This document shows, one piece after another, positions 32,280 to 64,000 of a stretch of DNA of 64,000 bases. Location of the stretch: assembly GCA_008632985.1 (NCBI GenBank), contig QPGO01000075.1, forward strand, positions 188,517 to 252,516. The letters run 5' to 3'. Each line of letters begins with the position of its first letter. Position 1 is the stretch's first letter. Position numbers and translations under genes: made by a program. The DNA is from Psammoneis japonica. Lineage: Eukaryota. A model generated the notes under the pieces. It ran no database searches. It saw only the letters and a list, made by a program, of their open reading frames with translations, and was not told the origin of the DNA.

Positions 32280-33400
32280 TTTTAAACAGCAGAGCAGCTG
32301 CAGCAGACAGAAGCAACACACTGCTGAAATGTTGGAGCTTAAATCACAACAAAACCAAGAAGCAAAAAGGCTGAGCTCTGGCTGGCTTCAATGCAACTTC
32401 AGCATGTGTGGCTGCCCTCATGGCCAGCCATCATGAGGTCACAAACACCAGCCATCACAATGTCATTTCAGCTCCACATTTGGCATTTGTGCCTGTGCTG
32501 GTCTCATTGTGCCAGCAGCTGGCTCTGTTTGTTGGGGCACCAGGAAGCAGTCATTTGCACAGTCTGCAGAGGACAAATGGAGACATGTTTTGGCAAAAAT
32601 GAGCTTGAGGCATGCCGCATTGTGCCCTCTTGCATGCATCACAAGTCATCCCAAATTGCAGAAATGACAAGCTTTGGGTCAATGGACTTGGCCCACAGAC
32701 TCAGCCTTGGGCCTGTGAACACTCAGGTCATGGTGCTGCACTCTGTCTTGTCTTTGGCCTCTGCAAACTCTTGGCTTCTGCTTCTCTCAGACAACAAGAA
32801 CAGCAAACATCTTCAAAGGGAAAACCACTCAATTGTTGACCATCATCATCATGTGCCTGTCAATTTTCTGCTGCCCCCTGACAAAAAAATGTTTTGAGCA
32901 AAAACCTTGCTTGGCTGCACGTGCATCTGCAGAGGAGTGCTGTCATTTGCTTGCTTGGAAGCTGTGTGCTGGCCCATTTGACTCTCACACAAGGAGGTGA
33001 TGCTGGCTCAAAATCTGCTGCATGCAAAAGTTGTGCAGGGCTTTGGTTGCTTGAAATCAAAAAATGACAGCAAACAAGTGTGAACTCTTTTCATGCAATG
33101 AAAATTGTGGAGCTGGACATCTCAGGTGGCATCACCCCATGCACGCACTTGCTGCTTGTCCCTTTTGGGGGCTGACAGGTGTGCATCTGCAAGATCATTG
33201 ATGCCAACTCTCTTGAGCAAGAACAGCACATCTGCTTTTGCACCAGTGCAGCATGTGGACAGCTTCTCAGTGCAAGCTGTGACATTTTCTTCAAATGTGG
33301 TGCAACTCACACAAAGTGCAACTCAGCCAGCTCTCTGCAAAGCCGAGGTGTGCAAAACAACTTTGTGAAGAATGCTCACAGAAAAGTGTGCATGGCTTTT
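32280..33400 (+). repeat. Dispersed repeat, copy 1 (copy 2 at ~62780-63850)
   Basis: Collinear blocks cagcagagcagc...cagacagaa, ctcagccttggg, tgcctgt.aattttctg, ctcaaaatctg, gggctttggttg, cccttttg.gggctg. Confidence 0.75.
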
Positions 33401-33519
33401 GTGCAACGCATGAAAAAAATTGCTCCATTGCAGCTCAGCACTGCAAGACCCTGCCCAGAGCTGGAACAATGTCAGGAGAAGCAGCCGATCCTTCTGAGCC
33501 ACAGCCTCTGCACCACTGG

Positions 33520-33800
33520 TGACCAGCCAGATGATGCCACTTGAGACTGGCCAGATGACACCACTTGAGACCAGCTCTCTGGGTGATGCCAATTGAGGCC
33601 AGACATGCACTGATTGAGAGGACACACCACTTGAGACTGGCTGGATGATGCCGCTTGAGACCAGATGTTTGCCACCACTTGAGATGACACGCCACTTGAG
33701 ACTGGCTGGACAACGCCATTCAACACTGGCGCTGGGCAATGCCAGCTGCTTGATGCCAGCCAGATGACACCATTTGAGACCAGATGTTTGCTGCTGGAGA
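33520..33800. repeat. Irregular minisatellite built on gatgacaccacttgagac(c/t)
   Basis: The core (cca)cttgagac recurs several times with variable, related spacing sequence. Confidence 0.8.
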
Positions 33801-36593: not shown

Positions 36594-36795
36594 AGGACTG
36601 CATTGCACATGAAACCTGGAACAATGGTGCCACACAATGTCAAAGGTGTGAGAGTCAAGAGTGCCAACACAAATGGCCAAAAGTGACTTTGAAGAGGACT
36701 GCATTGCACATGAAACCTGGAACAATGGCGCCACACAATGTCAAAGGTGTGAGAGTCAAGAGTGCCAACACAAATGGCCAAAAGTGACTTTGAAG
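36594..36795 (+). repeat. Near-perfect 101-bp tandem duplication
   Basis: aggactgcattgcacatgaaacc...gtgactttgaag at 36594-36694 and 36695-36795; I see one difference (ggtgcc versus ggcgcc). Confidence 0.92.
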
Positions 36796-39484
36796 CAAAG
36801 AGAATCACTGGATCTGTGCTCAGGACAAGCACTCTAGAAAAAATCATCAGATGCAAACACATGGCCCGGTTGACTGGGCAAGATTGGGTTGATGCTGTTC
36901 AGCCATTCCATGCTCTCTTTTCCCTGCCATGACCAAGCTGCTTCAAAGGATGGGCCAGCAAAGTCAAGAGGAAAAACCCAAGCTGACACTGTGCTGCAAC
37001 TTGTGTGGTGTTTTTGTTGTCCTTTAAGGCATGACTTCCTGATGTTGCCCTTGGTTTGAATTTGTCAAAAAATCATCCAGAAGCAGTCTCCTTGATTCAT
37101 TGCTGATGTCTCTGCTGCATCTGCAATCTCTTCAAGCTCTTAGAATGGATTTTCCACAATCACCGCTGCAGTCCAATGTCCGTTCCCATCAACTTTGTGA
37201 AGATCCTCCAGTGTGCTCTGGTCTTTTGTTGCAAAGGCACTCAACTGCTGATGCAGCAACAGTGGGGGGCAGCAGAATGCCCAACTTCATTCTCGTCCAA
37301 ATGGACATGCAGCACCTTGCAAATCTGAAAGTTTGCATCTGACAGGGTGTGAAGGAAAGCAACACTGTCAGTTTAGCTCCCTTGTGTTGCAAAAAGTCCA
37401 CCAGAATCCATGAGGCTTTGACCATGTCTGCACAGACCCAAGCGGTGAACCCACTGAAGCAGTCCAAGATTGTGGGGCTTGATGATGTGCTGCCATGGGA
37501 AACTCTGCATCTTGAGCCATCGCAGCAAGCTCTGGGGCACTGGTTGAACATCAAAGGCCCATGCAATGGCTCAAGGAGTTTTGCCAGCTTGAGACAGTGA
37601 CTGGCTTGTGAGTTTTGTCAAAAGTGCCCTTGTCATCAGCTGATGCATTCCCAGCAATTCTCATTGATCAGAAACTGCATCTGTGAAAGTCACAAAGAAA
37701 AAGGTTTGTGAGCAGAAGGTTGTGAAGAACAAATCCACATCAGCCACAAAGGGTGCAACTTTGATCTCTCCTTCCAAGTCAACATTGTCTCAAGACTGGA
37801 CAAACAAAATGCACTCAGCCAATGTTGGAGAATGGATTCAATCACACAAGACATTGTGCACGCTGTGCTTGCAAGATGCTTCTGCAAAAGATCTGGCAAA
37901 GATTCTTGCTTCAACTGCAAGCACTTGCACATGCTTTTGTTGAACAGCAGTGCCTCCCACAATGCACGCATTTGGAGTTTTGTGACATTGCCATTCACAG
38001 GAAGATGTTGCACTGAGCATTCCTTGTTGTGTGGCAGCCCACACCCCCTGCAAATGGAAAGAAAATGGCTCACAAGAAGGCAGGTTTCTTGACTGCACAT
38101 CCTTTTGCCTTGTGTCCAAAGATGTCATTGAGGTCAACATCCAAGAGCCAATGCAGTGATGCCACAAACCTGATGACAAGCACAATCAACCCCAAAAATG
38201 CAGCTGCAAAGTGAGCGCAGGTGTCAAAGGGAATGAGCACCTGACTCAAGCAGCAGTTCTGTCTCCTGTGTAAAATGTCAGCTTGGCATGGATGTGAGGT
38301 GACAGCTGCTTGCTTGCTTCTTTGCTTGTGTTTTCATTTTCAATGTTTTTTGGGATTTCCACATCTGCCAACATCTCCATTTTTGATTTTTTGCAACACC
38401 TCATTGTCCCTTTTGTCCCAAGTGAGGGCTGTGAAATGACAGATTTCAGATTGCTCTGCCAGCCCGCTTTGTCCTTTTGCCAGCCACCCACTTTTTCCAT
38501 GCAGCGTGTCTGCCCATTTGTTTTTGTTGCAGATTTGTCATGCAGAGACTTTGTTGGCTGCAAGAGCCAATCACAGAAACAACTGTTCCTCCATGTGTGC
38601 AGTGGAAGGATTGCACTGTGTGGAGTGCAGCAGCATTGTCAGCAGTTGTGGCTGCCATCACTGCAAGGCAGGTTTGGGGGGCGAGTCTGGACAGCATTGT
38701 TCATGCCAGGGTCAGTGATGGAGAGGCAGAGGTGGTGGCAGAGGTGGTGTTGGTGGCTGCAGCAACCCTGGCATCAGCTTCAGTGCAATGAGTTGGTTGC
38801 AGGGGCTTTGGATGATCCGTTGGCCAGAACAGAGCTGCAAGAAATGACAGCTGAACAACTGCAATCTTGGACACAACAACCACAAGCCCTTTTTCTCACT
38901 TCCATTTCATGTCACGGTGTCATGCTGGTGTGGTGGTTTCTTGCTGGCTGAACCTCACAGAATGATGATTTCCCCTGACATCATGGATCACTCATGGCAA
39001 TCCACAGCAAATGCTTTGCAGCTGCCTCCTTGGAAACTCTGCTGGCGTGTTGCTGGACAAACAGATGTTGATGATGCAAAGGTTGTTCTCAAGATGCCAT
39101 TTTGTTTGCTGCTGTTTAGACGTGGGTGATCACGTTCGCTTTTCTGGCTTGGCACGCGTTTTACATGCTCACAGAATGAACTTTTCGAGATCGAGGCTTA
39201 CGTCCTCATGCACATTAGAAACGCCGGTCGAACAATCGACAGCGAAGAAAGGCTCCAACTAGTCAATCCCTTTGATTGAGGTTGGAGGATCGCACCGTCG
39301 CCTCCTTTCGTCCCAACGACAACATGCCAAAGCCAAAAAGATCGTCGACATTGATCCCCTGAACGCCGGCCCCCTTTTAGAATCAAAGTTTCTACACAAG
39401 GCTGATTCTATATCGTTCAGTCCTACGTTACTCTGAGGCCACTCTGGCTGCGAACACTAAGGCTGATGATGCTGTTGCTGCGAC

Positions 39485-40850
39485 TTAGTTGACTTCTTTT
39501 GTCGGCTTGATAGAAAAATGAAACAGCCATCGCGTTCCAAAAGCACCATCTCTGTCTTGCATCCCATGTCTTACACGATCAAAAGTTACTCCTTTTGTGT
39601 AAAGGGTGGCTTTCACACCCTTCAACCGCATCACATGCATGTCATCCTCCAATCGGCACCGAAGCACGCGTCCTTTACCGCAAGCCGTCAACACATCTTC
39701 TCCTATGGCCGCCTTGAGCGGACGAATTACATCTTGTGGCTGAAGGTAGCAGAACATGCCAGCAGAAAACACTGACAGTGTGAATTCCTTTTGGTTACAG
39801 AAGCAGGTCAGTTGAGCAACAGTGCAATGGCGCAAGTTTCTCCAAATGTTTACAAATATCAGCCTCCCCTGTATTTGGCACAACTAACAGGGGCCAGTGC
39901 GCGAGAAACCCTGTAGCTCGTCAAAACGGGATAGCTTCATGGCAACCTTTGGCTATTCGGTAGCTAATGCCATCTTTTGGAAGGATCGCAAGAGCGTTAG
40001 AGTTATCCGCCCCATGCCAGTTGGTAACATCTATCTCGTAAAAGCCGTCATCGTCGCGGAATTGTTCTAACGATGCCAACCCCATAGAGTGATGTGGCAG
40101 CAGCACCTGTCGAATAGACATGCTCGAATTGTAGTTGCTCTTCACGCTTGCTTGTCTCCGGATGAAGTAGTCGAAATCACCTGGAAACAGGGTACCCAAA
40201 ATTGGAGAGAAAACGGGAAGAAGGTTTCACGTTCTTCCAAGCAAGAGCAGTTTCCACAGTGCAGCACAGCATGGTGTGCAATTCGCCCGCAAGCGTCCAT
40301 GAAGTAAGACTCAAACCAAGCTTTTCTCCTTGGGACAACTATCCTTCGCGGCTGTTGTTCGAACTGGCGCATGAATCGTCTCGACATTCCAGCAGAAACA
40401 CAAGCGACATATGACTCTTGCAGGTAAGCTCGTGCGTGTCATCCGATCATATCAACCGCCACGAAACTTAAATCTTCCCTGTGTTCGACAATTGTACCTG
40501 GACCATATGGTGTCGCGTAGTCATCACCGGGCGTAAACGATACTTTGTTGCTGCTTTCCGCACCCCAGGAAGAGAACAGGGAGGCTCCTTCCTGAAGCTT
40601 TGGAAGCGTGGGGGGGTTGTACCTTGAAATGTCCCTGCCGTGAATTCGGGCATAAATCGGCTTCCAATTACGAATTTCACCGGTCACGTCATCGCCCGCA
40701 TGGCTCTGCGCCTTTCCCTTTCCGTCGACGTCTCCGCTGTCGTTTAAGGCACCATCCTTCCTCTTGTGCACGACGTTGCTTTGGCTCTTTAAGTGCGATG
40801 AATTCGTGGTAGTCGCATGAGGATCAGCATCAATTTCTGCATCTTGTAGT
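39485..40850 (-). pseudogene. Fragmented host-type gene with repeated T[P/A]YGxG modules
   Basis: ATPYGPGTIVEHR and VLTACGKGRVLRCR modules lie in ORF pieces broken by frameshifts and stops. Confidence 0.55.
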
Positions 40851-41180
40851 CATTCAAGGAAGGTGCGGGAACAATGATGTCGTATTGCGGACTTTCTGCA
40901 ATCAGCTCTGGCTAAAAAAACTCACTGTTGTGAGTCGATGCATCCTCGGTCACTTCAGTTTCAAGGACCGACTCTAGAGCCGCATTCTTGTTTCGCGAGC
41001 GGTATTTGCGGCTACCTCTGTCTTCTACCGGTACTGAGATGCAAGCTCGCTTACCTGCACGCCCAGAGGCCGCCAGTCGAGTGCTACCTCATACATGTTG
41101 AAAATTGGATCAAATGACTTAATGGTTGCAATCCCATATGGCGTTCTTACTTTTGGGATCATCCGGCTTTTGAGTGACGA

Positions 41181-42070
41181 TCATAGATTATGACCCTGAG
41201 CGATATAGACCTCTGCGGAGTCTTTGCCTTCATCCGTTGTGCTGGCCATACCTCCCTTCGGAGAGGGCAAACCTGTAATTTCAATGTTGGAAATGGGAGA
41301 GTTGCTGAGTGTCTTAGCTACCTTGTTCATTGGTGCGGCATTATCCTTAAATTTTGGAAGACGGGATAGGTTTGCAAAAGCCTTGTGGCGCTGCGCGCCT
41401 CGGGGGAGGGAATCGAGATGACGGTCTGGCAGTAGAGGACGGTGGCGTCGGATCACCAATTGACTTCATCGTGTCTTTCTGCAGAGTCGTCGGGTTGCCT
41501 CGTCGAGACGCTGACTTGTTTGATGTCTCTCTAGAGCTTTGCAGTACTCACTTTGGTGGTACTGCAATTAACTGTTCCAACTGCAGAAACGACAAGTTTA
41601 GAAGTGTGAGATATTAAAAATCGACTAATCATGAAGATCGAGGCGCGTCAAACGACTTACCACCATAATTTCATTGCGACACCATATCCATCCCCAGTAA
41701 CAACACCGTTGATCCCCGCACCAATTACTTTAGCTCCTACTATGCTTGTTGCATCTTCAACACCTTATTGTCTCAGAGCCCCTGTCACAGCACTGAGGCT
41801 ATCACCCAAACCTGCTCCTAAATTTTTCAACACATACCATGCAGCAGAACCCACAACATTCCCAGTCAGAAGCACGTACTGGTAGTCGCCTTCTTTACAG
41901 TTCTCGTCGCCTTCACACGATATAGTACCAGATACTTCCATTCTTGAATGCTCACCGCTGTCATCAACGTGACGAATTTCAGGCAACCGAAAAGAAAATG
42001 TCGCAAAACGTGAGAGACGACAGTCATTTTCTCGAACAAATTCACTTCGGCACGGTTTTCTTACCTTGAT
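41181..42070 (-). pseudogene. Gene remnant with intron-like signals and an internal stop
   Basis: Coding-like run ...GAGLGDSLSAVTGALRQ*GVEDATSIVGAKVIGAGINGVVTG followed by a GTAAGT donor. Product is unknown. Confidence 0.4.
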
Positions 42071-43089
42071 TTTTGCAGGCCGTATTCTGCCGAGTAGAGA
42101 GACAACGTCTTGCTGACGGGCATGTCTCCATCGCCCTCGAGTGAATCACTGTTATTGAAGGTGATTCCACTCTTGACGTGTTGAGGGCTGGCATGAGCTC
42201 CACACTCAACAGGTTTAGCTCTGTCATAATGTTGGACAAGGCCAAAATCTCGAGGGGCTTCAATAGGAAGTCCAAGACAGAGTCGCAAGGGATCGCCACG
42301 AAACATTCCGCTTTCAATCGGCTAGACGGTAAGGCTGGCATTCGCCGACACGTTGAGTCCCTCATTTGAAATTACAGTAGATACCTCCCACATTTCTCAT
42401 CAATTCGACTTTGGATTGCGTATCGAGTCCTCCCAATTGGATTTCACCAATCACAATGTGATGTCATGGAAAAATATTCACGGTCTGGTTAGTCAATAGT
42501 CGTGTTGTTGTTGGCATTTCCATAAAAGTCCAGCCAATCCAGCGCCAGACCATTGCTAAGGTACCGACCCAGGACGACTTGATTGAGTACGTACGACGCC
42601 CACAGCATTGGAGTATCACGAGCAAAATCAACAAGATGACTTGAATGCAAAACAACAGCGAGTTCTGTTTGATTTTTTGGAATAGGACTTGTTATGCAGT
42701 CATTCCAAGTGTCGACGACGTGTACTTGGCCAGAGGTAGGTTGAGAGAGCAAATCGATAAATTTTGCGGAAATGCTCCCCGAAAAGTGAATACCGGGACC
42801 TCGATACCCGGCATAATACACGAACCGATACGAGTGGATGGGTTGGAGGTATGATTAAAAACAGGTAAAAGTAGAAGCATGCGTCAGAGCAAAGCATACT
42901 TTGCTGCAATCAAATGCTTTTTCTGTCAAGCTCAACAATCAACAACACTCAACGTACTACGGAAAAGGTTTCTTTTTCACTTTCTTCGTTGGGAATACAA
43001 TATCAATCGACACAAACAACACGCCAACGCATCCTGTCGACTACTGTGGTCTGTGATGATCTCAATCCGGAGCTTTGTCATCGTCGCGT

Positions 43090-43620
43090 CATGCTGAATG
43101 CCGTGTTTGTGGCATGATGTTTGAGCTCGGACCTCGACAACGAAGACGTCACCTTGGCGACATTTTTTTCGTTTTCCACGGTTACCGTAAAGCGTACGTA
43201 GGAATTAGTAATAATTTGGAAAGTACCGAGTTCCCACGAATCTTTTACATACAAAATCATGGTACAGTAGGAATTCTACACGGATACACGAAAATGACAG
43301 TGATTGAGAAATTTAGCAACGGTCACGACACAAACAAAAACTCTCACGCTTTTTCTTTCGCGCTGTTTCGATCACAACTCGTCGTCTCGCACGATGTGTT
43401 GTTGTTCGCCAAGCAACGATTGCCGCGATCGCCCAGGATGGCTCGCCCTTCTTGCGGACAACAGAGAGCCAGCTCTTGTTTGGTGTTCCACAACTCATCA
43501 TGCTTGTTGACGTGTTGTCTCCAGGTGGCGCAGGTGTTGCCCAGTTGAGTCCAGAGGTCGGGGCAAATTGAGTGCGTCTCTCCCAGCCTTGAGTCCATGT
43601 CACTCTCGTGTCTTTGAGTG
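43090..43620 (+). repeat. Dispersed repeat copy A; the 5' half retains TpA and CpG
   Basis: 43090-43345 aligns with 48326-48596, and 43365-43520 aligns with ~49440-49710. Confidence 0.88.
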
Positions 43621-45778
43621 CAGGAAGTTGCCTGTTCGCTTGACCCGTCAGGTCACGGCTGTTGAAACAAACAGCAGCGTTCGTCTGTGAAGCAGCAAGA
43701 GCTCGCCGAGCAGATCATGCTGTTGACGGAACACAGGTTTGGGGTTCTGTCGCATCAGTGGCATGATGCGGCAAGTCTTCACTCACAGGGAGTGTTGATT
43801 TAGAGTGCGGTTGACTCGCAAGTTTTCTTGTTGTCTCCGCAGCACGCCCCCCCCCTTTCACTTTTTTTGGGTGACATTTTGTCACTCTGAAGATGTGCAA
43901 AAGCTTGAGCGCTGTCTTTTGATGACGCTCTTGAGGCAATGTTACCCCACGCTACCAACCCACATCAACTTTTGATTGGTGTGTCTCAAATGTTTGAAAC
44001 ATGCTTTGAATCCTTTTCCAATGGATGTGGAAAGACTGAAAGCACAGCACAGCAGTCTTTGTTGGCGTGTCATTCATTCCGCACGTGCGTCAATGGACTG
44101 CGATGGCGGTCGAAGCGCTTGCGATGTCGTTGCATGCTTTTTGTGCCGCCAACACCCCACTGCATCGGGTGGTGAACTGACACAAGCAACGATGAAAGGA
44201 AACTAGAAAATGGAAAACCTCTCTCTAGTCCAATTGCATGTTGTCGTCTCTGCAACACTCTGTAGAAAAAAGGAAGGGTCCTGTTCACTGCCAGGTCCCG
44301 ACCAGGCTTTGATTTTGCTGTGCTGATGACGAATGACGTCATCGCCTGGCGGCCATCATCTCATCATTCCTTTCATTGCTCCATCATGACGATTTCATCA
44401 GCTTGATCTTGTTTGTCATTCCCCAAATTGAACGTTGATGTCTCTCGGTTTTCACCTGCAACATGAGTCATGACTTGGTCCCAGAAATGACACACCGGCA
44501 GTTTCAGAGGATTGAAAGAGGAAAGTCGAGAACATCCGCGTTCAAAGCCATTCCCATCCACACAATTTCACACTTGTTGTCCGGATTTAACATCTTCACT
44601 TTCTTTGAGGCAAACACTCAAAAGCTGCCTCAAGGATTGTCTCTCTCATGCTTGATCTGCTCATTTCTTTCCGTTCGATTCTTGATGCAAAAATGCGTCC
44701 ACATGCGACAGTCACGTCAGCTCTGGTTTCCACAGTGGCCTGGTTTGCCCCATGCATTCTTTCCGTGCCAACCAGTTGTGGCATTCAACTCTAGCCATGT
44801 TGTGGCAATCCTTGCAGTGTGCAACGGCCCGGCTTCAACACACTTCACAGTGCGTGATTCACTGCACTCATGCCAAGCGGTCAGCAAAGCATGCAACCTT
44901 GTGCTGCAACAACCACTCACCAAGACGCAATCTTTTACAAAAGCAAGTCGACAGAAGCACCCATTTGCAAAACGTTGGTCCATGGATCCATTTCTGCTTG
45001 GCTGTGTGCAATTTGATTTGTGGTGCAGGCCCAATGTGGCAGGTTGAGGGAGAGGTTGACTCGATCAAGCTCTTGCATTTTTGCAAAGCTCGTCGGGATT
45101 TCGTCACACCGTTTGCAGGGCATGTTGTCTCCAAACAGCAGCTTCAATTTTCGAAGAGACTGCCAAGACGAGTTGACGGCAAATGGGTTTGTTTCTTCAT
45201 TTTCGCTGCTGGCTTGGTCCAGTTGCTCTGCAAATTGCTTGACTGTTTGCAGCTCACTGGTGCTGGTGGTGCAATGCGGAACAACCGCAACGGATTCTGA
45301 TGGCTGCCAGTGCACCCTGCAACAAAAACGTCACCCGTGCAACCCCACAGTGAATCCGTAATGAGTGGCTCAACCGTCTGCAGCTCGAAATCCTTTTGCA
45401 TGAATTCAGTTGGCAAGAACAATTGTGCAAACCAACCACATTTCATGAGACAAAAACCAGCTTCACAATGACACCCCAACTCCAAAGCACCACACCACAC
45501 TCACCTCATTCGATTCTTGTTGTTCAACAGCAACTTGAAGATGCGGCAGAGGGTTGCCTCCTTCGACATTGTGCTTTGCGAGTGACGACTCATGGAGAAA
45601 TCCCCCATCATGCCAATTGGCCGTGACTTCTCCCACGGTAAGAGGTCCACTTCCTTGCCTGTTGGTGCGTCATTGTGTCTGTTGTTTTGTCGTAGTCGAT
45701 GGATGGAACTTGGGAAGCAAACTTTCCCGTTCGTCCCGCGGATCCTCCCTCGTCTAATTCTTGCTCTTCCAAAAACAG

Positions 45779-46200
45779 TCAAGCCAACAAGGCGCACTCG
45801 CATCCCAAGCTAGATCCCGGTCGACTTGCAAGCATGTGAGACAAGATTCCAAGCTTGTTGTAAAGCCATTGCTGGTCGTCGTCATTGTCACCAGTCATTT
45901 CTCGCAACGTTGGCCACGTGTCCAACGCGGCCACTGCACCCTGTTGTGTTCTCCACATGGATGCATCAGCAACGCTGCCGTCAAAGGAAATCACAAAGAC
46001 GTTTCTGTGGGACACTGCTTGGAGTCGCGTTGTTGCACGTCCTCGCAGCATTGGTCTCTTGTGCAGATTTCCGAGCAATCGATTTGCAATGAAACACGAT
46101 GATGCGATTGCTGGGGTTGGATTCGAACAGAGCAATGAGAACACTGCTGGCCACCAAGCGAAAAGAACAGAAATCATCCTCCGATGACTTGTTGTAAAAC
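45779..46200 (-). pseudogene. Possible captured HAD-hydrolase-like gene fragment
   Basis: VFVISFDGSVAD resembles a degenerate HAD motif I; the fragment is TpA-depleted and flanked by stops. Confidence 0.35.
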
Positions 46201-47299
46201 AGCAATGACAAATGCAACAAGGGAGCACTTTTGTTGGAGGAATCATCGTCACGATGTGCCATGCAGCATCGTCACGATGCACCATGCAGCACCGGTGGGA
46301 TGGAGAATTGCGGTTGTTGCGATGACGCAAGAAGTTGAAGTCGCAAGATTGCTGATGCGAAGTTATCACGACTGACTGATCATGTGTTTCCACCACCAAC
46401 GGAAAGATTTTTGCGCGAAAGTTTGTGTCCCTGCTTGTGTTTGCCGCACGAGCTTGAGACCATCCGTGCAGGCGACAGTGCACAGATGGTCTCTGGAGAC
46501 CATCTGTGCACAAGCAGGGACATGCAACCCTGTGGTTCTTTGCAATGCAGTGATGGCTGGTGTGGATCGTCGCACCATTCGCAACTGGTGGGTGGCGAAG
46601 CTTTCAGATGTCACGTCTTTGCGCGTCAAAGACAAGATTGGCAAGGGATTTGGTGCGGGCGATGGGTGGAGTGCCGCAGGATGCCACTTCTTCACTTGGC
46701 TCTATGACTGGCCTTGGCCAAATGATGAAACCAAGGAGGTGGAGGCGTTGAGTGCATTGCTGGCTTTTGCGCCATTCTTGGATGAAGCTGCCCAGAACGC
46801 GAAGTTGAAGGCCAAGTTCCTCGTGGCCACGTGCGAGTGGTGTGGTCTTGATGCATCCTTGGGTGACCTTGTTGCTGCTGCCATGGACAACACTGACACC
46901 AGCCAATCCCAAGTCCACCCGGGGCCTTGACCCACTGTGATGGCATTCGTTGGCGCTCTTTGCCGCCCAGCCAATCTTGCATGCAAAGAAGAGATTGAAC
47001 ATGACACCAGTCCAGCTGAGTTTGTTGACAAATGCAGTGCAACACAAAAGAAGTTGAGTGGGTCATTGAACAACTGGGGCAAGTCAAGAGAGAAAGGAGT
47101 CAGGCTCAGCCCAAGCCTCCACAGTGCAGCTCACTCGGTGGACAGGAAAAGTGGCGCAAGTGTTCTGCTCTGAGTGTGCTGCATTCATTGTGGTTGCTGT
47201 CACCTGTCACTGACTCTGCCATTCTGTGTTCTCTCTGCATGCAACTGAACTTGTGTGCAAACTGACGTGGTGCACCAATCACTGGAAAAAACTGAGATC

Positions 47300-47990
47300 T
47301 TTGATGATGATGTGCCCCCGTCATTCTGGAAAAGGAGGCAGATGGCACTCCCAAGAAACAGTCTGAGAAGAGTGTGGTGGCTGTGATGCACCTCCCAACA
47401 TCAAAAACCATCTTTGATGACCTGCTTGCAGAAGCACCCCATGAATTCTGTCACACAGGCTGAAGAAGTGAACGACAGCAAAGATTTTCACCACTGGCTG
47501 ACAACTGACCCCACACCTTGGTGAAGTCACCTGAGTTCAAGCGATGCGTCATCAAGACTCTGGCAGCCAAGGAGCACACTCTGATGGAATCTGAACAGGA
47601 GGCATGCAAAGTCCTCTTGAAGAAAGACTGGATGCATGTCTGTCTGTCATGGAGGCTGAAGATGATGCCAGCAGCACTCCAGCATTGGACCATCCCTTGA
47701 AGGTGGCAGAAGATGCAAAAGCTCGGAAGAAAGCAAGGCATGGCAGCAAGCACATAGATCCTTCTGTGATCCGTGCCATGACTGTGGAGGCAGAAAGGCT
47801 TTTCAGTCTTGCATCTAAAGTGCTGGCTGATGATCGGAAGAACATGGAGCCACATCTCTTGGAAGCTGTCATGATGCTCAAGGCAAACCCACGCTGGTGG
47901 GACAGGGAACCAGTCAAACAAATGGTGAGTGGTCACTGGGATGAGAAACTCAAGGTGGCAAATCTTGATGCAGAGGAAGAGCTTCCACTG
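47300..47990 (+). mobile_element. hAT-superfamily transposase remnant (C-terminal dimerization region)
   Basis: EAERLFSLASKVLADDRKNMEPHLLEAVMMLKANPRWW matches the hAT dimerization pattern; the upstream frame is broken by stops. Confidence 0.75.
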
Positions 47991-48325
47991 AATCTGGAGG
48001 CCATGAACCTGTCAGAGCATGAGACCATGGCTGATTGGAGACACAAAACTGAACCGCGGCGCAAGTGGTGTTGTGAGCAGTTGGTGCAAAAAGCATCAGT
48101 GACAGCAGCAATCAATTGCCATTGGCAGAAAGAGCCACACATTGGTTTTGGTTGGCACAGCACACTGGTGCACCCTGCAGCACAGCAGATTTGAGCTCTC
48201 GGAGCTCACTCTGTGGCGACATCATCACTCACTCATTCACTTGTTCTGACAAAGCATCAACTTGTGTCTGTTCACTTAAATCCAAAATTTTGAGAATGAA
48301 TGAAAAATGGAACAATGTGCAAGCC

Positions 48326-48596
48326 CATGCTGAATGCCGTGCTGTGGCATGATGTGTTGTGCCACCTGCCAGCTCTTTTGAGCTTGGACCTCAACAATGA
48401 AGACGTTGCTTTGGCAACATTTTCATGCATTTTCTACAGATGCCATGAAGTGCATGCAGAAGCTGGCAACATTTTGGAAAGTGCTGAGTTCCCACAAATC
48501 TTTTGCATGCAAAATCATGGCATCAATTCTGCAAAGATGCACAAAAATGACAGTGACTGAGAAATTTAGCAACGGTCACAACACACAAAATCTCTC
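48326..48596 (+). repeat. Dispersed repeat copy B, hypermutated; continues at ~49440-49710 after an ~0.8-kb insert
   Basis: Collinear with 43090-43345; differences concentrate at TA and CG sites. Confidence 0.88.
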
Positions 48597-49816
48597 GGAA
48601 ATTCTTTCTCAATTTTGAGGACCGGCTAAATGTGCAGTGCACATTTTTGAGGTTTTGGGTCCAACAGCAATCATTGGGGTCCTGAGAGTCATCATGCAGA
48701 AATTGTGCAGGAGCACACCAGCGCCTGCCAAAAACAATTGTTGTCAGTCTGTCCATCCACTCCATGTGTGAATGTCAACAACTTCTCGGAAAATCAATTG
48801 AAATGCCATCTGATTGACAGCATTTTGACTCACATGGTGAAGGCCAACACCGTCAATCACATGGCATTTCAATTCAGCTCCCAAAAAGTTGTTGGCTCCA
48901 ATCACTCTCTCGCATGACATTGTGTGCATTTCCACACGATTTTGTTTTTTTTCTTTTGTGAAATGTTGATTGTGACCAATGTGACATTTTTGAATGATTC
49001 CTGTTGCACTTTGTGCCAAATGCACAAAAATGCACTGCTGCATGGAAACATGCCAGGATTCTGTGTGGCGTCACACACCAAAACGTTGCAGCGCACTCGT
49101 GATGAGCTTGCAACTGCAACAGAAGCAATTGGCCCTCTAGAGACAGGAAGCGACAGCCACAAAACTCACCACCACATGCATTTGCAACTGTCACCTGCTC
49201 AAGCAAGCAACAGTGCTTGCTGTTCAGTTGCTCAAACACGCAGATCTCAACAAGGTTGCGCGGGATTTCAGCCATGGCTGTGGAAGCTCACGGCAGCCGC
49301 AGACAGTGCGCACAGGGTTGGAGGGAGGCTGTGACATCATCCATCAGCGCTGCATCTGTGCAGATTGCATGCAGCCATTTTTTGTGCATTTTGGTGTGCA
49401 AAATCTGCTTTGGATGAGCACATTTAGCTGGCCCTTGCTCAACTTGGATCACAGCTTGTCATTTTGCATGATGTGCTTGTTTTTGCTGACCGCAATGTCG
49501 CAATCACCAAGGATGGCTTGCCGTTCTGGTTCAGCATGTGAGAGAAGTGAAGAAGAAAATCATGGTGGCAGAAAGTGTCTGCACCATTTGCACATTGGAT
49601 GCCCCCCCCCATCAGACCAAATCTGAGCTTCTCCTTTGGCTTCACCCAAGACATGGTTTTCTCTTGTTTGGCATTCCACAACTCATTGTGCTTGTTGGCA
49701 TGTTGTCTGAATCCCCTTGACCAACACATTCAATGTTGTCAAGTTGAGGAGTCAACTTGTCTTGGACAAGGCCACCTGCATGAGCCATGTGCAGGGGTCA
49801 TGAGTCCCGAAAAACA

Positions 49817-50223
49817 GGGTTTGGGCCGATTTCTGGTGCAAAACTCACGTAGAAAATTCGCGTAGAATATTTTGTTCGTCGTGCTTTTCCCGTGCTTTGC
49901 GAAAAATAGGCCACGACCTCAAGGAATCGATTTCAGTCATAACGGTTGACACTTTGCGTACTCACTTTTTGATGACAAACACGACGATGTCCACCGTTCG
50001 GCAAAATTCCATCATTGGAAAATGTTCACCGTGGTGGGACTGTAGTGAAGTGTTGATCGAATTTCTGAAAATGGAATTTTGAAGTGTTCACGCACAGAAT
50101 AGTGTTGCTCATGTAAAAGTCATCATGCAAAGTGTCAATGGTTTCAGGGGAAAACGATTCCTTGAGGCGTCGGTGGAGCAGAGAAGCACGGTAGAAGCAC
50201 GAGAAAAAAATCGGCCCAAACCC
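49817..50223. mobile_element. Small MITE-like element with inverted termini
   Basis: GGGTTTGGGCCGATTT and AAATCGGCCCAAACCC termini, plus internal inverted motifs cgtgctt/aagcacg and cctcaaggaatcg/cgattccttgagg. Confidence 0.7.
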
Positions 50224-53200
50224 TAATTTCTATAATTTTTTCTACGTAAAATTTCTACGTGATTTTTGCACTAGTGCACATGGCTTGTTGGACCAGCCTT
50301 GAGCCATGGGATCCATCGGAAAAAACCGAGCAGCATGGTCAGCCAGCAAGTGGTCACTGGACGTGTCCAAATGAGCAACCATTCATTCAAAGACCAAGTG
50401 CGTGTTGCTGTTTGAGTGATCCATTTGTTCTTGGCATCAAAAAGAAAGTGTTGCCCTTGCTGGGGCCACTGGTTTGTGGCAGCTGCGGCAGTGACTTCAT
50501 CACGAAAGAGCTGCATTTGATTTGACATTTGGTGTGTCGTTGATGTTGTGACGAGCTTGACAACAATTGTGCAAGATTGTTTTGAGGCTCTCAGAAAGGC
50601 TCTTCAGCGATCCTTCACAGTTGAAATGAGGGCTGAGATGCACCAGCAATGTTGGAAAATGGATTCTCTGGAAGACAACATTGTTTGTTGTCGATCCAAA
50701 AAATGATGGCTTGCACAGTCTTGGGTGCAAATGTCTGCTCTCTGTCCTGGAAAACAGGCTTGCTCTTCAACACCCATCACTTTGAACCACCTCATCCTTT
50801 TGTGATCTTCTTGAGAGAGAGTGCAGCAATGCTGCTCATCTGCATGGAAGAAATGGGGCATTGTGAGCTCATTTGCTGACTGCAAGCTGAGGCAGCATGC
50901 CAGCAAGCATGTTGACACCAACAAAGAATCCTTGGATTGGCAAACTTTGTCAATGGTTGCCTTGACAAGAGTGACTTCATTCAGAAGGGCCATGACGATG
51001 TGTCCTTCGGACTGCCGCCAAAATGCCAGAATGTCTTCTCGATGCCACAGCATCACCTTTCATTGGATTGCCATCTCTGAAGCCCTTCTTGCCTGCCATG
51101 CAGCTGCAATGTGCCACATGATTGGTTGTGGGTTGTGATCTGTGCCATCACTGACTGTGCCTTTGGCAGGCACCCTGTCATGCTCTGCAGCGGTGCTGTC
51201 CCAAACAACCTTGCACCAACAAAATCAACTCTTCCAAGAACACAAGATGCAAATGGATTGGACTTGTGTCTTGAAAAAGGAAATGGCGGATGTTGTGAGA
51301 TTGATGTGCAACAGTTGAGAGAGTGAGGACACAGATGCACCCACCTGCAGAAATTCTCAGACTTTGCCAAAGATCCATGTCACCATGTGTTTTGCAATTT
51401 CAGCAGTTGGTTCATGCCATGCCACTGCACTTTCCATTTGGTGTCTGGCAAGCCCAGCATCTTGGCGCGGATTTGCAATCAGAGCAGGCCACATGATGGG
51501 GTGACTTTCTTCCTCAACAGCCTTGTTGACAGTGCCAAGCAACTGCGCAACAAACACACTTGTCTCGACCGCCAAAGCAGCAAGTCCCTCCCAAAATTTG
51601 CCAATGAGTGGGATGAAATGCTCCACTTCCATTTGCTTGAATGCACGAGGAAGAAAGATCCAATTTGAGCAACACCAAAAGGCATCTTTGATGGGAAGTT
51701 TTCTTGGCATTTTTGAAGTTGACAAAGATTCCTTGGGCTGTCCTCAGCCTTGGACAGGCAGCAGACGATCCATTTGCATCAACGCCAACACCGTTTTGAA
51801 ACAAAAGATTAAAATCACAAAGCGTGCAGTCAAAGCATGCTGTCTGCTGGTGAGCAATGGGATTTGCTGCATTTCCTCCTCCGTGGTTTGGCAAATTCAT
51901 GAAAACTGAACATCTTGATTGGAGTTCCTTGTGTGTCTTTTGTTTTTGGCTGCTTCTCAGCATGTTTCTTTGCAGACTTGACTGCATCTTTGCAGCTGCC
52001 TTCCTGCTTCCTGAGCACAGACATTGCCTGAAGTTTCTCCGCTTTCTTTCACCACGATTGTAGAAAAACAAGCTGATCAGCACAAAAACGCAGCTTTGTC
52101 TCCTTGCAATCCACAATTGGGTCCAAGAGTCCATCCAAATGGCTTGCAAGATTAACAAGTGCCATGTGTGAGAATCCAACAGCTTCCTTTCAAACATTGT
52201 GCAATGTGCTGTTCCACACACTTGACACACTTGTCTGAGCTCTTCCAATTTGTAAGATTGCATGAATGATGCAAGCATCCGGCCCCACAACATGTTGCCA
52301 ATGAGTTGCAAAGCTGCTCCGCCACAAGTCCCTGGTTTTTTCTTGAGCTCACCTCCCATCAAATCACAATTGTGAAATCCTGTGCATCCATCACAAGCAA
52401 CAAACATTTCTGGTGCAGGGAAAACAGCACAGAGAATGCGGAGCCTGTGATGGCTTGTTGTTGCAGTTAATTGCAAACAAGGCCTGCATCATGACAACTC
52501 CAAAGCAAGCGGCATGGAAATGGACTTCACATGGAGAGATGGAACAAAACAGAGTCCAGGAGAAGCAGCAAGCTGAAGACAGATGCAACATCATCTTCTG
52601 TTGTGGTGGTTGCAAGCCAAGGCCCAGAATGGGAGGCGTCTTTGGAAGTGAGATTGTCGAAGGCGGTCTGATTGCCAGTGCATTTGGGGGTCTTCCCAGT
52701 GCAATTTGCATGCAAAAGCAAACACATGGGATCTGTCCAGTGTCGCCAAATGCCCTGATTGCACTGATTGACAGACTGTTTTAGTGCAAATTCTGTGCAA
52801 CTTTCTTCGACAGTCTTGCTTCCAAAGATGCCCCCCCAAAAAAGATTTTTTGGATTCCAAAAAAGATGTCAAAGGGAGTTGCAACATTTGTGATTGCATG
52901 CTGCAAATTGCTGAACACTCTTGTCCCTTTTTGTGCATGAAGCGCCTTGGATTGCCCTGAAGAGGAAAATTTCCATTCGTTGCAATTTTGCACCAGAGCC
53001 ACGCAGAAATTTACAGAGCCACATCTTGCTGCTTTCCAATGCTCCTCCCACCTCCAATCTTGACCTCCAACAAAAACACAGTGAAACACGGGGATGTGTC
53101 CGACAATGGCAGCACCCATTGTCGTCAACTCTGCTGATTTTCACAAATCTTCCATGCTTCAGCATGCTCTTCATGGCAACAAAAGAGAGCTTTCTTGTTT

Positions 53201-53517
53201 GCTCAGTTTGGCCCCACTGGCATCAGAGTGCACGAAATGTTAAAAATGTGCAGATTTGCATGATGACAATTTGTCAAAACATTGCAAAAAATCATTGTCA
53301 TGTGATGAAAGGCCAACCTCTGGTTGCAAGTTTGGTGCACCAATGTTGCAATGACTTGTTGAGAATTGTGCATGCTGTTTTTCACTGTGTCCACATCGCT
53401 GTTTCTGCCTCCACCTTGTTGCCATGTGCCAATGCATGATTGCATTGCCACACAATCCTTGGTTTGTTAATTTTCGTAAACATCATTTTAAACAAGAAAA
53501 GCATTTCATCGGTTGAG

Positions 53518-54930
53518 TCAATCCCTTGTTGCGTCTGCAGTGCAATGACCAAGTGCTGTGTTGACTGTGCACACATTTTCTTGCTGCAACTCTCTCAAAC
53601 GAAGCTGACGATCATCATCGGACTCGTCTCCATTGGACTTGTCTCCTCCGTCGTCCGTTTTGCCTTTTGCACCTTCCTCCCACTCATCGTCGTCACTGTC
53701 ATCGTCCCTGCTGCTCTCCACCATCAGGCTGTTCATTGCCTTCACCTTCTCCGTGTCACCGGTCGGTGCTTTCTTCTTCTTCTTTTTTGCTTCTCCGGAC
53801 TTCTTGCACTCGCTTTTCTTGATCTCCGCATGCCACTTTTCAAACTCCTTGCCCTCCTTGGAGTCTCCATCTTTCGTCACCTCTTTGCACAAATCGTTGA
53901 ACCGATTGATTCCGTCGTCTCCCCAAGACACTCGTTGTTTCTTTGGCTTCATGTGCCGAGGGGCAGGCCTTGTTTTCGAGCTCCATTTCCTCACCCAATT
54001 CTTCCGCCGCCTCCTCCTTGTTCCTGCATGCCCACACCTGCCAACAATTCTCCACAGCCAATGGCGCCAAAGCTTCGTCACCGACCATGAACAACTGTGA
54101 GACCTGTGCATTCCCAGTTTTGACGGCGCTGCTCCATGCCTGCTTTTGCTTGGTTTGAGGCAGCATGTGATCACAGAACCACTTGCATGCCTGCTTGTTC
54201 CTTTGTTTGCCGCCGGTGACAGTGTCCAGGCTGAACGGATCCCATGTCGGCACAAACGGGATGTCATTCTCTTCATTCTTGTCACGGCTTGACTTCCTGC
54301 CTTGCTTTTTCCTCCTGACTGCCGCCTTGAGTTTCTTTTCTTTTTCCTTTCCCTCTTCCTTGGTGACAACGCCTGTGTGGACAAAGCATCACCGTCATCT
54401 TCTTGTGAGATGCGCGCAACTCTCGAATCACACACATTGGTCACTTGACTTGCGGGCCATTGCCTCCGCCCCAACAGCCGAACACACCGTGTTTCTGCGA
54501 TTGTCAACTTGCCTTTTTACCGCCTTTTTTGCCCATTCCTCCCAAGTTCCTGACCAATTTGAAGTGTCCATGTTGTCACCAGCAATCTGTTTCTTGACAA
54601 ACATTGAGACGCTCCCATTGCTTGCCAATTCTGATGGACTGAGAAACTTCACCTGTGGAAAGAGATCATTTCTGGCCACCTTCTCTGCTTCTGATTTCAA
54701 TGCACCATGCGCTGCCTGCGTGCCCGTTCTCTTCAACACTGCCTGAAGTCTCGGGCTCATTGGCTTGACAGTCTCATTTTTCTTTCTCTTCTTTGCCGGT
54801 GGTGCTGGAGACAACATCTTGATCTTTTCACGGCAACAATGAGAGGAGCAGCACTGTTCGACAGTGCAACCGTCATTTGGGTCGTGTTGAGACAGCCAGG
54901 CACTCCATTTTTCTCTGTGACATTGCACAA
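53518..54930 (-). pseudogene. Decayed transposon accessory ORF divergent from the Plavaka-like transposase
   Basis: DEALAPLAVENCW and WGDDGINRFNDLCKEV segments in different frames; pattern recalled from transposon-associated ORFs. Confidence 0.5.
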
Positions 54931-55497
54931 ATTGTTGTCAGCAACACATGCATTTGAAAACACATTTGCATGTGACAACAAACAGTCCAACTCACTTTTT
55001 GACATGGCTGTCATTGCGTTTCAACGGAGACAACATCCTGCATTTTGATGGCAAACAACAGCACAATGTTCATTGTGAATGCCAGATAAAAAATCAAAAT
55101 GCAGACACATCATGCCTGTGAGAATCATCCAAATCTGCAAGACAATGCAATGTTTGCCAATTTCCCGCCATTTTTTCCACAAGACAAGGACAACGAGCAT
55201 GAGTCTTGATGAAGGCCCTGTCAATGTTGTCTGATTGACAATGGACAGAAACCCTCTTCTCTGTCCCGGTTGTGGCCAAAGTTTTTTGCGAATGGCCTGC
55301 CATTGGAGACACTCACCAACGTGTTGCTCAGTTGCCCAAGAGTTGCAAACCCAAGATCCAATCCCAGATCAAAGCGACATTCCTGCCACAACAGAGGGGC
55401 CACCCATGAAGAAAGCGGCAGTTCTTCCTCTTCGTCCTCTGATGATGACAAATCCCATCCGAGGCGATCTGCTTGCAGCAGATTCCCAAGATCTTCA

Positions 55498-63850: not shown

Positions 63851-64000
63851 AAAACACACCTGACAGCAGTGCTTCTTTTGGATGACAGGGAAGAAAAACT
63901 TGTGTTGGTCACAAATGAGGGACATTTTGCATTCCCCATGGAGCCTTTTCTCAATGTTGCCCCTTTGTGTGCTGCTGCCATTTCCATTCCGGCGTGCCAC

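Follow-up and report, generated by a model that had tools for sequence, protein, structure and literature searches.

One repeat occurs twice within the window (the whole 64-kb stretch of DNA analysed here), and the two copies differ in a way that raises the question of whether they represent an unmutated and a mutated state of the same sequence and, if so, in which direction and by how many processes the bases were changed.

Two copies of one repeat in different states

The original prediction was built on two 47-nt strings, which are indeed present at 43218-43264 (copy A) and 48476-48522 (copy B). They differ at exactly six positions, comprising all four TpA and both CpG steps of copy A, and each of these reads TpG or CpA in copy B. 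BLASTN aligned 43120-43345 with 48377-48596 at 77.5% identity over 227 columns, and MAFFT lengthened the pair to 43089-43345 (the left part of the repeat unit of copy A, + strand) and 48325-48596 (copy B, + strand). There were 45 mismatches in the MAFFT block, 39 transitions and 6 transversions, and 26 of the 45 were TpA or CpG in copy A and TpG or CpA in copy B. Eight of the 15 TpA steps of copy A read TG and five CA in copy B, one was unchanged and one stood opposite a gap, and among its 17 CpG steps five read TG, eight CA and one AA, while three were unchanged, so that the aligned block of copy B retains 2 TpA and 3 CpG. As a control class we used the aligned TG/CA steps of copy A with a YpR partner in copy B (n = 32; those turned into non-YpR steps were excluded). 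Only 2 of these 32 steps were changed in copy B, vs 27 of the 31 TA/CG steps (Fisher p = 2e-11). When written in a purine/pyrimidine alphabet, 43183-43265 is identical to 48441-48523 across 83 nt, and thus only transitions occurred in that stretch. The difference originally described between the two copies is confirmed.

The description of copy A as unmutated holds for its left part, which has the dinucleotide make-up of genic DNA, but not for the whole copy. From 43317 rightward copy A is TA-depleted, and its repeat unit passes from the unmutated into the depleted state somewhere between 43286 and 43459. In addition, site 43150-51 reads CA in copy A and TG in copy B, which suggests that copy A was also hit there. 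The homology goes on past the part originally quoted: the continuation of the unit in copy A (43346-43520, + strand) keeps its CpG steps, and 43370-43520 matches, in the same order, the continuation of copy B at 49447-49708 (+ strand). Copy B further includes some 0.8 kb (48618-49435) that copy A lacks; this segment is depleted of both TA and CG and flanked on both sides by an 18-nt inverted repeat.

Direction of the changes

Comparison of two copies does not by itself give the direction of change, and fungal RIP creates TpA from CpA. A RIP-like process could thus have made TA (from CA or TG) and CG in a TG/CA-rich ancestor, and copy A would then be the derived one. We examined four lines of evidence on this point. 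The first is a Copia-type reverse transcriptase/RNase H frame (RVT_2) of 515 codons without a stop at 37-1581 (+ strand), which lies in a TA-depleted block and has relatives at 65-70%, one of them named as diatom-derived. Tyrosine makes up 1.0% of this frame vs 4.5% in the homologues. At 21 conserved tyrosine columns the frame reads Cys nine times, His three times, Tyr four times and Phe once, with four gaps, whereas 65 of 80 external homologues have no Cys or His in these columns and 12 of the 80 have one.

The second line comes from another repeat, with depleted paralogues at 32150-33350 and 62640-63880 (both + strand). The naive count of TG-CA swaps between them (42) did not exceed that in controls with a deliberate misalignment (mean 36.1, maximum 54), and we replaced it by a restricted test that sets YpR steps against an RpY control class. 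Among the aligned YpR steps of the two paralogues 103 were the same, 30 were swapped between TG and CA and 5 differed by a single transition, while the RpY class of the same pair had 57 single-transition vs 13 double differences. The swaps show that the two paralogues were mutated independently.

The third line, which only approaches a family-wide consensus, is a comparison with contigs of one public sequencing run, possibly from the sample of the assembly itself and hence not independent. Among the 40 variant places listed, of about 501, 25 have TG or CA in the window and TA (10) or CG (15) in the contigs, six show the reverse and nine are of other kinds. Differences in which the contigs read TA or CG and the window TG or CA occur in the adjoining part of the repeat unit of copy A (43459-43786) and further right; positions 43459 and 43462 are TA in the contigs, and 43619 and 43785 are CG in more than 90% of the summed contig depth. 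All 40 listed places fall outside the 43089-43345/48325-48596 pair. The fourth line is saturation, since copy B is saturated while the composition of copy A resembles that of genes and 30 of its TG/CA steps are retained. The outgroup, the swap test and the run contigs all put TA/CG in the ancestor, as originally proposed, and none of the four lines places TG/CA there at the TA/CG sites of copy A. We also know of no single process that yields both TA and CG from TG/CA, and we regard the derivation of copy A from a TG/CA-rich ancestor as extremely improbable.

The same contigs bear on whether the depleted state might be a sequencing or assembly artefact, such as miscalled modified bases, or the native composition of foreign (for example viral) DNA. 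In its unique parts the window departs from the contigs at about 1% of positions, mostly with TG/CA in the window and CG in the contigs (across the 40 places listed, of about 501, this kind accounts for 15), and the run possibly derives from the sample that was assembled. However, contigs with a word depth of about 42-60 reproduce over 90% of the depleted state, and a 909-nt piece had 8 differences from the window and a 507-nt piece 2. Furthermore, conserved residues were altered in the way expected from the genetic code (Tyr to Cys or His), one repeat is present in both states, paralogues were altered independently, and what the blocks contain is remnants of Copia and hAT elements rather than viral genes. 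An artefact or a foreign origin is accordingly very unlikely.

Depleted blocks with sharp edges

An HMM divided the window into TA-normal segments, with 38-40 TA per kb, and four sharp-edged, transposon-rich TA-depleted blocks, with 2.8-6.6 TA per kb, that add up to about 33 kb and in which TpA is at 2-10% of expectation. Total YpR is unchanged at about 241-250 per kb and GC content is about 48%, the loss of TA being matched by the gain of TG and CA. The first block (1-4987; 6.6 TA per kb) contains the Copia frame and keeps CpG at 3-1731, with CpG depletion at 1739-5124. The second (31148-39113) is depleted of both steps, with 2.8 TA, 7.2 CG and 231 TG+CA per kb, and gave no Pfam match. The third (43317-49848) keeps CpG to 46834 and is depleted of it from 46838, and includes, just upstream of copy B, a weak match to the hAT C-terminal dimerisation domain (47595-48191, + strand; E = 1.3e-4). 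In the fourth (50275-63998; 4.2 TA per kb) sub-blocks with CpG kept and CpG depleted alternate. Within this depleted territory lies an island at 49811-50274 with inverted repeats and normal content (40 TA and 59 CG per kb), which is probably a later insertion.

The genes at 4994-31143 have normal TA content, so that host genes are spared within this one 64-kb window. The genes of the TA-normal parts are long frames without introns and encode eukaryotic and plastid-related domains; among them is a class II aldolase whose best named matches are in diatoms, at up to 84% identity. No host-type domains were found in the depleted blocks of the window, which hold RVT_2 and hAT remnants. The window is DNA of a diatom nuclear genome, and its depleted part is transposon-rich and gene-free. 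Two stretches, 43068-43334 and 49743-50000, have very high summed contig depth (which is not the same as copy number) and are nevertheless unmutated. They fall on the left part of copy A and on the island, and the targets may thus not be chosen simply by repetition.

TpA and CpG losses as two processes

As originally proposed, TpG/CpA is the end point of TpA and CpG alike, but the changes are better read as two separable processes, a near-saturating change of TpA to TpG/CpA and a variable decay of CpG, because 10.6 kb have lost TA and retained CG (39-69 per kb). Both steps were lost in 22.4 kb. In the CG-depleted blocks the residual was 15-27% in each of CGA, CGC, CGG and CGT, with no flanking-base preference. 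Among related Copia loci from metagenomes, CpG rho was below 0.5 with ordinary TpA in 17 of 80. Strong TA depletion was found in none of these 80 loci (minimum rho 0.33), which came from a search with peptide patterns that required Tyr or Phe and was therefore biased against mutated copies.

A single enzyme or pathway might still act on both palindromic YpR steps, either as a dual A/C DNA deaminase or through deamination of methylated bases at both. All CG-depleted segments of the window do fall inside TA-depleted blocks, and both changes are near saturation in copy B. Moreover, amphioxus ADAT2 edits A and C in DNA, as described in a preprint on the chlorarachniophyte Bigelowiella natans (Mettrop et al., bioRxiv 2026; 10.64898/2026.01.13.699255). 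Against one pathway stand the 10.6 kb in which CpG was largely kept, the sharp switches between CG-kept and CG-lost DNA inside TA-depleted territory and the Copia loci that lost CpG without TpA; the term CpG has no occurrence in the main text of that preprint. We consider one pathway for both steps quite unlikely, and treat the TpA and CpG changes as two processes.

A 5′-TAY-3′ motif

The TpA change has an extended motif, with a pyrimidine on the 3′ side of the edited A (5′-TAY-3′). We classed TA sites by the number of strands (0, 1 or 2) that read TAY and counted 181, 616 and 364 sites, respectively, in TA-normal DNA and 71, 60 and 5 in depleted DNA (chi-square 118.6, p = 2e-26). The corresponding residual TA was 33-37%, 7-14% and 0.7-2.4%. 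The ancestor could be inferred for 23 sites, where editing had hit TAC 15 times, TAT 5 times, TAG twice and TAA once, and the TAY strand was the edited one in 12 of the 13 informative sites (p = 0.003). In the blocks that lost only TA, the loss of TAC (10.48 per kb) was equalled by the gain of TGC (10.75 per kb). Both strands were affected, and a runs test found no strand runs of edits (z = -0.57).

Comparison with known systems

The textbook cases of targeted hypermutation of selfish DNA are only fungal RIP and animal APOBEC and ADAR. RIP changes C to T, mostly at CpA, and thereby creates TpA and lowers GC content. The changes described here resemble ascomycete RIP in that dense transitions with dinucleotide specificity are limited to transposon-rich DNA with sharp boundaries, both strands are acted on and paralogous copies are mutated independently. 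Their polarity is the opposite, however: TpA is destroyed and CpA/TpG gained by A:T to G:C changes, with GC content unchanged. The window gives no clear support to a dependence on duplication, as stretches of very high contig depth, a measure other than copy number, remain unmutated.

Decay of CpG through 5-methylcytosine is known for methylated transposons of vertebrates and plants, and diatoms also methylate transposons. The change of CG to TG/CA fits such decay, as it has no flanking-base preference, occurs in transposon DNA and is seen also in related Copia loci, but it does not explain why TA was lost, and of the two losses that of TA is both stronger and more uniform. Clustered transitions in selfish elements are likewise produced by ADAR hyper-editing and APOBEC3, both of which are deaminase-driven. 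These act on RNA or single-stranded replication intermediates and would mark retroelements only, whereas here hAT-like, inverted-repeat and non-coding DNA was also hit. ADAR has a 3′ G preference, in contrast to the 3′ pyrimidine preference found here. On the other side of the edited base the two are alike, ADAR favouring a 5′ U (Discussion of Mettrop et al., 2026).

The only match that we found in print was that 2026 preprint, and we found no report from a diatom in the literature. It measured de novo, TpA-only A:T to G:C hypermutation of integrated viral DNA, reported an excess of reverse-transcriptase and DDE-endonuclease genes in the TpA-depleted coding sequences, and proposed, without proof, an adenine deaminase (Mettrop et al., 2026). 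As in B. natans, TpA is converted in the window to TpG or CpA according to strand, an A:T to G:C change, and selfish DNA is hit while host genes are spared, here within one 64-kb window. The host is, however, a diatom (a stramenopile) rather than a rhizarian, and the targets are transposon remnants rather than giant virus and virophage DNA. The depletion is near saturation (rho 0.02-0.1, vs 0.45 reported for the B. natans NCLDV region), and in part of the DNA it is joined by CpG loss, which the main text of the preprint does not mention for B. natans. That main text also contains no trinucleotide or flanking analysis with which our TAY preference could be compared. Finally, ongoing mutation was measured in B. 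natans, while the window displays an end state.

Proposed mechanism

We assign a probability of roughly 0.8 to the reading as a whole, namely a targeted, near-saturating hypermutation of TpA to TpG/CpA in diatom transposon DNA together with a separable loss of CpG. From the pattern we infer an enzyme that attacks either the A of the step or the paired T, a choice of targets and possibly a role of methylation. The change of TpA to TpG or CpA is an A:T to G:C change on either strand, with the edited A within 5′-TAY-3′. Most likely, adenine in the DNA would be deaminated to hypoxanthine, which the following round of replication would treat as G. A second, slower process removes CpG in a subset of the TA-depleted blocks, probably because 5-methylcytosine is deaminated where transposon DNA is methylated. 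The left part of copy A was spared by both processes and copy B went through both, so that the pair represents the states before and after for one sequence.

Alternatively, the thymine of TpA could be the base attacked, in a 5′-R-T-A-3′ context. It would be modified (for example to a 5-hydroxymethyluracil-type base), then mispaired or misrepaired, giving T-to-C with no deamination of adenine. The motif, written as RTA, and the copy A/B changes fit this equally well, and the sequence outcome is identical, as TA-to-CA on one strand is TA-to-TG on the other and A-to-G and T-to-C thus look the same. Dinoflagellates have a modified thymine concentrated at TpA. To our knowledge no modified thymine is known from diatoms, though, and one that still pairs with A would not by itself give T-to-C. 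The authors of the sole measured precedent read it as adenine deamination, likewise without proof (Mettrop et al., 2026). We hold the attack on thymine to be unlikely, and favour deamination of adenine.

Implications

A TpA-specific A:T to G:C process has so far been the subject of one report, the 2026 preprint on a rhizarian alga. If true, the near-saturating signature in a diatom would mean that the process is not confined to one lineage and that it acts on ordinary transposons besides integrated viruses. With somewhat less than even confidence, we suggest that diatoms have a DNA-editing genome defence that rewrites 5′-TAY-3′ to TGY over whole transposon domains, in effect RIP with reversed polarity. 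As the TpA signature also occurs in a chlorarachniophyte, and hence in another supergroup of eukaryotes, such editing of TpA in selfish DNA could be an immune mechanism that is widespread among eukaryotes, old, or evolved more than once. It is possibly coupled to 5-methylcytosine heterochromatin, and its enzyme would be a natural editor of adenine in double-stranded DNA. Such an editor of chromosomal DNA would be of interest to base-editing technology. The window newly contributes the TAY motif, which narrows the search for the enzyme, and an internal before/after pair as well as untouched islands, from which the activity can be dated or its limits drawn. Without TpA, two of the three stop codons and most codons for Tyr disappear; spurious long frames and transposons that can no longer be recognised would follow, which matters for the annotation of diatom genomes.

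Two copies of a repeat differ mainly at TA and CG steps

The original prediction contrasted two copies of one repeat, copy A and copy B, of which A was taken as unmutated and B as mutated at TA and CG. The 47-nt stretches on which it was based were found at 43218-43264 in copy A and 48476-48522 in copy B, and they differ at six positions, namely the four TpA and two CpG that copy A has there; each reads TpG or CpA in B. The similar region extends beyond the quoted stretches: BLASTN aligned 43120-43345 with 48377-48596 (77.5% over 227 columns) and MAFFT extended the pair to 43089-43345 and 48325-48596. The block contains 45 mismatches (39 transitions and 6 transversions), and an 83-nt stretch is the same in both copies when written in the purine/pyrimidine alphabet. 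Copy B carries a change at 13 of the 15 TpA of copy A (8 to TG, 5 to CA) and at 13 of its 17 CpG (5 to TG, 8 to CA). Altogether 27/31 TA/CG steps of copy A are altered in B, versus 2/32 TG/CA steps, counting for the latter only those with a YpR partner (TA, CG, TG or CA) in B (Fisher p = 2e-11). The observation is confirmed and lies far beyond chance.

Over its full extent, 43089-43520 of copy A is colinear with 48325-48596 plus 49447-49708 of copy B, which has an extra 0.8-kb segment (48618-49435) bounded by an 18-nt inverted repeat; this segment is depleted as well. As copy B lies directly downstream of a hAT-like frame (47595-48191), the repeat may represent subterminal sequence of a hAT-type element. 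We found no terminal inverted repeat for this element: the right end common to both copies recurs in inverted form only at the two known places. A degenerate core pattern, blind to mutational state, had 0 matches to further copies in metagenome contigs. In contigs of one public sequencing run that match the window, the summed depth over 43068-43868 is ~50-130x that of neighbouring stretches, which suggests a many-copy family, although summed depth is not a copy number. C runs of 8-10 nt occur near both copies, at 43840-43850 (A) and 49604-49613 (B).

The unmutated state of copy A ends at ~43286-43314 and, from 43317, TA is absent from its unit until 43801, so that the state switches inside one repeat unit. 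Within this depleted part the run contigs read TA at 43459 and 43462. The switch may reflect a domain boundary of the process, gene conversion or the junction of two insertions.

TA and CG are the ancestral states

Four lines of evidence (outgroup, paralogues, run contigs and saturation) agree in supporting TA and CG as ancestral. The predicted direction from A to B thus stands, but copy A proved only partly pristine.

For the outgroup comparison we aligned the Copia reverse transcriptase (RVT_2) frame at 37-1581 on the forward strand with 80 homologues from a protein collection, all 63-70% identical by BLASTP except two at 56-57%. Counting columns conserved in 80% or more of the homologues, the frame has 33 private changes, including 8 Tyr to Cys and 3 Tyr to His, and its Tyr content is 1.0% versus 4.5% in the homologues. 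The 21 conserved Tyr columns hold 9 Cys, 3 His, 4 Tyr, 1 Phe and 4 gaps in the frame. At the same columns 65 of the 80 homologues have no Cys or His and 12 have one, while 2, 5 and 7 were found in one homologue each. A change of Tyr to Cys or His, TAY to TGY or CAY, is exactly a change of TA to TG or CA.

The second line comes from two TA-poor paralogues of another repeat family, at 32150-33350 and 62640-63880. A first count of 42 TG/CA swaps in their global alignment (61% identity) was uninformative, as misaligned controls gave a mean of 36.1 and a maximum of 54. We then restricted the comparison to 676 of the 1329 columns, where purine/pyrimidine identity was at least 87% in 31-nt windows, a criterion that is blind to transitions. 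Of 139 YpR steps, 103 were the same, 30 were swapped between TG and CA, 5 were one transition apart and 1 was TA in both copies; the RpY control class gave 68 same, 57 single-step and 13 double changes. Steps that are the same or swapped, and rarely one transition apart, are what is expected if ancestral TA/CG was saturated in each copy independently, and a TG/CA-rich ancestor does not give this pattern.

Among the 40 variant places listed of 501 between window and run contigs, 25 have TG/CA in the window and TA (10) or CG (15) in the contig, 6 show the opposite and 9 are of other kinds; over all places in the run, transitions make up 349 of 462 changes. In the high-depth part of the copy A unit, CG accounts for >90% of the summed depth at 43619 and 43785, and TA for ~45-50% at 43621, 43772 and 43786. 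This run is the only public one with this stretch and possibly stems from the very sample that was assembled; it thus backs the sequence without being independent of it. In the unique parts of 42000-50000, ~1% of positions differ from the run, mostly with TG/CA in the window and CG in the contig and with a few of the reverse; these differences resemble CpG polymorphism between alleles or strains in transposon DNA, or errors left in the assembly.

As to saturation, hardly any substrate is left in copy B and in the depleted blocks, and the make-up of copy A is that of genic DNA. Repeat-induced point mutation (RIP) was ruled out, because its polarity is the reverse.

Depleted blocks form a sharp mosaic with normal DNA

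By dinucleotide odds ratios, the 1-kb windows fall into two classes, ordinary (TpA 0.4-0.76, CpG ~1) and depleted (TpA 0.01-0.19, TpG/CpA 1.5-2.2). A two-state HMM over YpR steps called TA-depleted blocks at 1-4987, 31148-39113, 43317-49848 and 50275-63998, with 2.8-6.6 TA per kb, versus 38-40 TA per kb in the TA-normal DNA at 4994-31143, 39117-43314 and 49850-50272. The edges of the blocks are sharp, as far as the spacing of TA sites can resolve them. The total of YpR steps is conserved, with ~245 per kb in normal DNA, 241 per kb in 31148-39113 and 250 per kb in 43317-49848, and GC is near 48% in both classes, as predicted by transitions among YpR steps.

The original prediction treated TA and CG changes together. 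Both were indeed seen, but they are better taken as two processes, since CpG loss is confined to part of the TA-depleted DNA (1739-5124, 31248-39113, 46838-49801, 50260-53596, 54530-55407, 57928-58617 and 60538-63998), and 10.6 kb of TA-depleted DNA (3-1731, 43317-46834, 53600-54521, 55416-57924 and 58619-60534) largely keep CpG.

The depleted blocks contain the RVT_2 frame (37-1581; Pfam E = 4e-20) and a weak Pfam match to a hAT dimerisation domain (47595-48191); no other Pfam family was recognisable in them among 146 frames of at least 90 aa. Sub-threshold matches to Plavaka, NOB1, Clathrin link and Cwf15 were treated as chance. Purine/pyrimidine-alphabet seeds revealed no LTR pair in these blocks, seeds of 26-29 letters being at chance level. 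The TA-normal parts have long intron-free frames encoding a ubiquitin hydrolase with a MYND finger, exocyst Sec6, NUDIX, a class II aldolase and a CcdA/DsbD-type membrane protein; the best named relatives of the aldolase are from diatoms, with identity up to 84%, which marks the host as a diatom.

An island of 460 bp with inverted repeats (49811-50274) has normal TA and CG inside depleted DNA, for which a later insertion is the simplest explanation. In that case the process would not act all the time on everything in the domain, and a high copy number would probably not be enough to set it off.

In the depleted blocks TAA and TAG are erased and TGA is the sole stop left, which explains their long open frames; gene callers would probably over-predict genes there. 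Frames of 300-470 codons without a family match were seen on both strands, for example at 51517-52488, 53521-54516 and 56256-57656.

Loss of TA follows a 3′-pyrimidine rule

We classed TA sites by the number of strands (0, 1 or 2) that read 5′-TAY-3′. The counts were 181/616/364 in normal DNA and 71/60/5 in depleted DNA (chi-square 118.6, p = 2e-26), with residual TA fractions of 33-37%, 7-14% and 0.7-2.4%, respectively. An ancestor could be inferred for 23 edit sites, 13 from the A/B pair and 10 from contigs, with the edited contexts TAC (15), TAT (5), TAG (2) and TAA (1). Of these 23 sites, 13 were informative as to strand, and 12 of them were edited on the TAY strand (p = 0.003). In TA-only blocks the loss of TAC (10.48 per kb) matches the gain of TGC (10.75 per kb), and gains of TGA, TGG and TGT are far below losses of TAA, TAG and TAT; these figures are approximate, because gene DNA is compared with transposon DNA. 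The 9 Cys to 3 His of the reverse transcriptase fit the rule, since every Tyr codon reads TAY on the sense strand. TG and CA outcomes showed no clustering (20 runs versus 21.8 expected; the 13 A/B-pair sites were also inspected), so there is no sign of long single-strand tracts. For CpG loss a flank preference comparable to TAY was absent.

Within the 64-kb window, the data show a TAY-specific, directional A:T to G:C process that is confined to transposon-rich DNA, acts on both strands and independently on paralogues, and is separable from CpG decay. ADAR or APOBEC editing of replication intermediates was ruled out, because the changes extend to DNA elements and non-coding DNA and fall on both strands.

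The TA process would be enzymatic adenine deamination in DNA, with inosine read as G. A thymine-directed version, with a modified T in RTA, has an identical sequence outcome, and we consider it unlikely. Alongside adenine deamination, CpG decay would reflect 5-methylcytosine deamination in methylated transposons. The former is probably fast and the latter slow, as the reverse transcriptase block combines an open 515-codon frame and ~80% TA loss with 69 CpG per kb, and the doubly depleted blocks are without recognisable proteins. Fungal ADAT2/3 mRNA editing prefers a purine on the 3′ side, which would be at odds with TAY. We do not claim the ADAT/TadA family as the source of the enzyme; the link consists of substrate preferences and of a proposal in a preprint on Bigelowiella natans.

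A precedent in Bigelowiella natans

According to the main text of that preprint (bioRxiv 10.64898/2026.01.13.699255), 231 of 302 nuclear single-nucleotide mutations in mutation-accumulation lines fell in integrated giant-virus and virophage regions, and 230 of these 231 were A-to-G or T-to-C, all stated to be on TpA. It further describes reverse-transcriptase and DDE-endonuclease domains as enriched in TpA-depleted coding sequences, and proposes, without proof, an ADAT2-like deaminase; the words "trinucleotide", "flanking", "CpG" and "diatom" are absent from its main text (10.64898/2026.01.13.699255). From its numbers (211 mutations, 6169 TpA, 3132 generations) we calculated ~1e-5 mutations per TpA per generation; by our arithmetic, not the paper's, saturation at this rate would be reached within roughly 10^5-10^6 generations.

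As far as its main text describes it, that system and the window have the defining signature in common. They differ in lineage, here a diatom, and in the targets, which in the window are transposons. Depletion is also stronger here (TA odds ratio, rho, 0.02-0.1 versus 0.45 in the NCLDV region there), and the 3′-pyrimidine rule and the accompanying CpG loss are features of the window. The B. natans preprint was the sole relevant match in the literature on this hypermutation, and no diatom report was found. The window is a new, strongly marked diatom instance of a targeted hypermutation with a single description so far, from another supergroup, and it contributes details of the mechanism.

Related Copia elements and other features of the window

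None of 80 related Copia loci in metagenome contigs had strong TA depletion (minimum rho 0.33), but the search patterns required Tyr or Phe and thus disfavoured mutated copies, so that absence of the signature is not shown. CpG rho was <0.5 in 17 of the 80. The locus with the minimum TA rho (L032, a 2561-nt contig from another data set) is partly depleted, with 1-3 TA per 320 nt in 961-1600; CA is in excess over TG, and the conserved Tyr columns hold 5 His and no Cys in its protein (P0062). A second homologue, P0031, has 7 Cys/His at these columns (4 Cys and 3 His). Both hint that the process may operate in other organisms.

The 4.2-kb stretch at 39117-43314 has normal composition and is flanked by depleted blocks on both sides. 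It is without a frame of at least 150 aa and without a Pfam match (46 frames in 38.9-43.6 kb gave none), and summed contig depth over part of it (42000-43067) is 4-12x that of unique DNA. At 33521-33796, in the purine/pyrimidine alphabet only, we saw a cluster of short direct repeats (seeds of 29-42 nt, spacing ~65-235 nt), possibly a degenerate tandem array with transitions between its units. A 101-nt tandem duplication at 36594-36795, in a TA/CG-depleted block, is 99% identical, with a single T/C difference at 36628; both units are without TA and CG, and the duplication is therefore later than the hypermutation. In the gene-rich TA-normal region, a 125-nt inverted repeat pair, 92% identical and ~1 kb apart (18252-19273), looks like a small DNA-transposon-like element that is not hypermutated.
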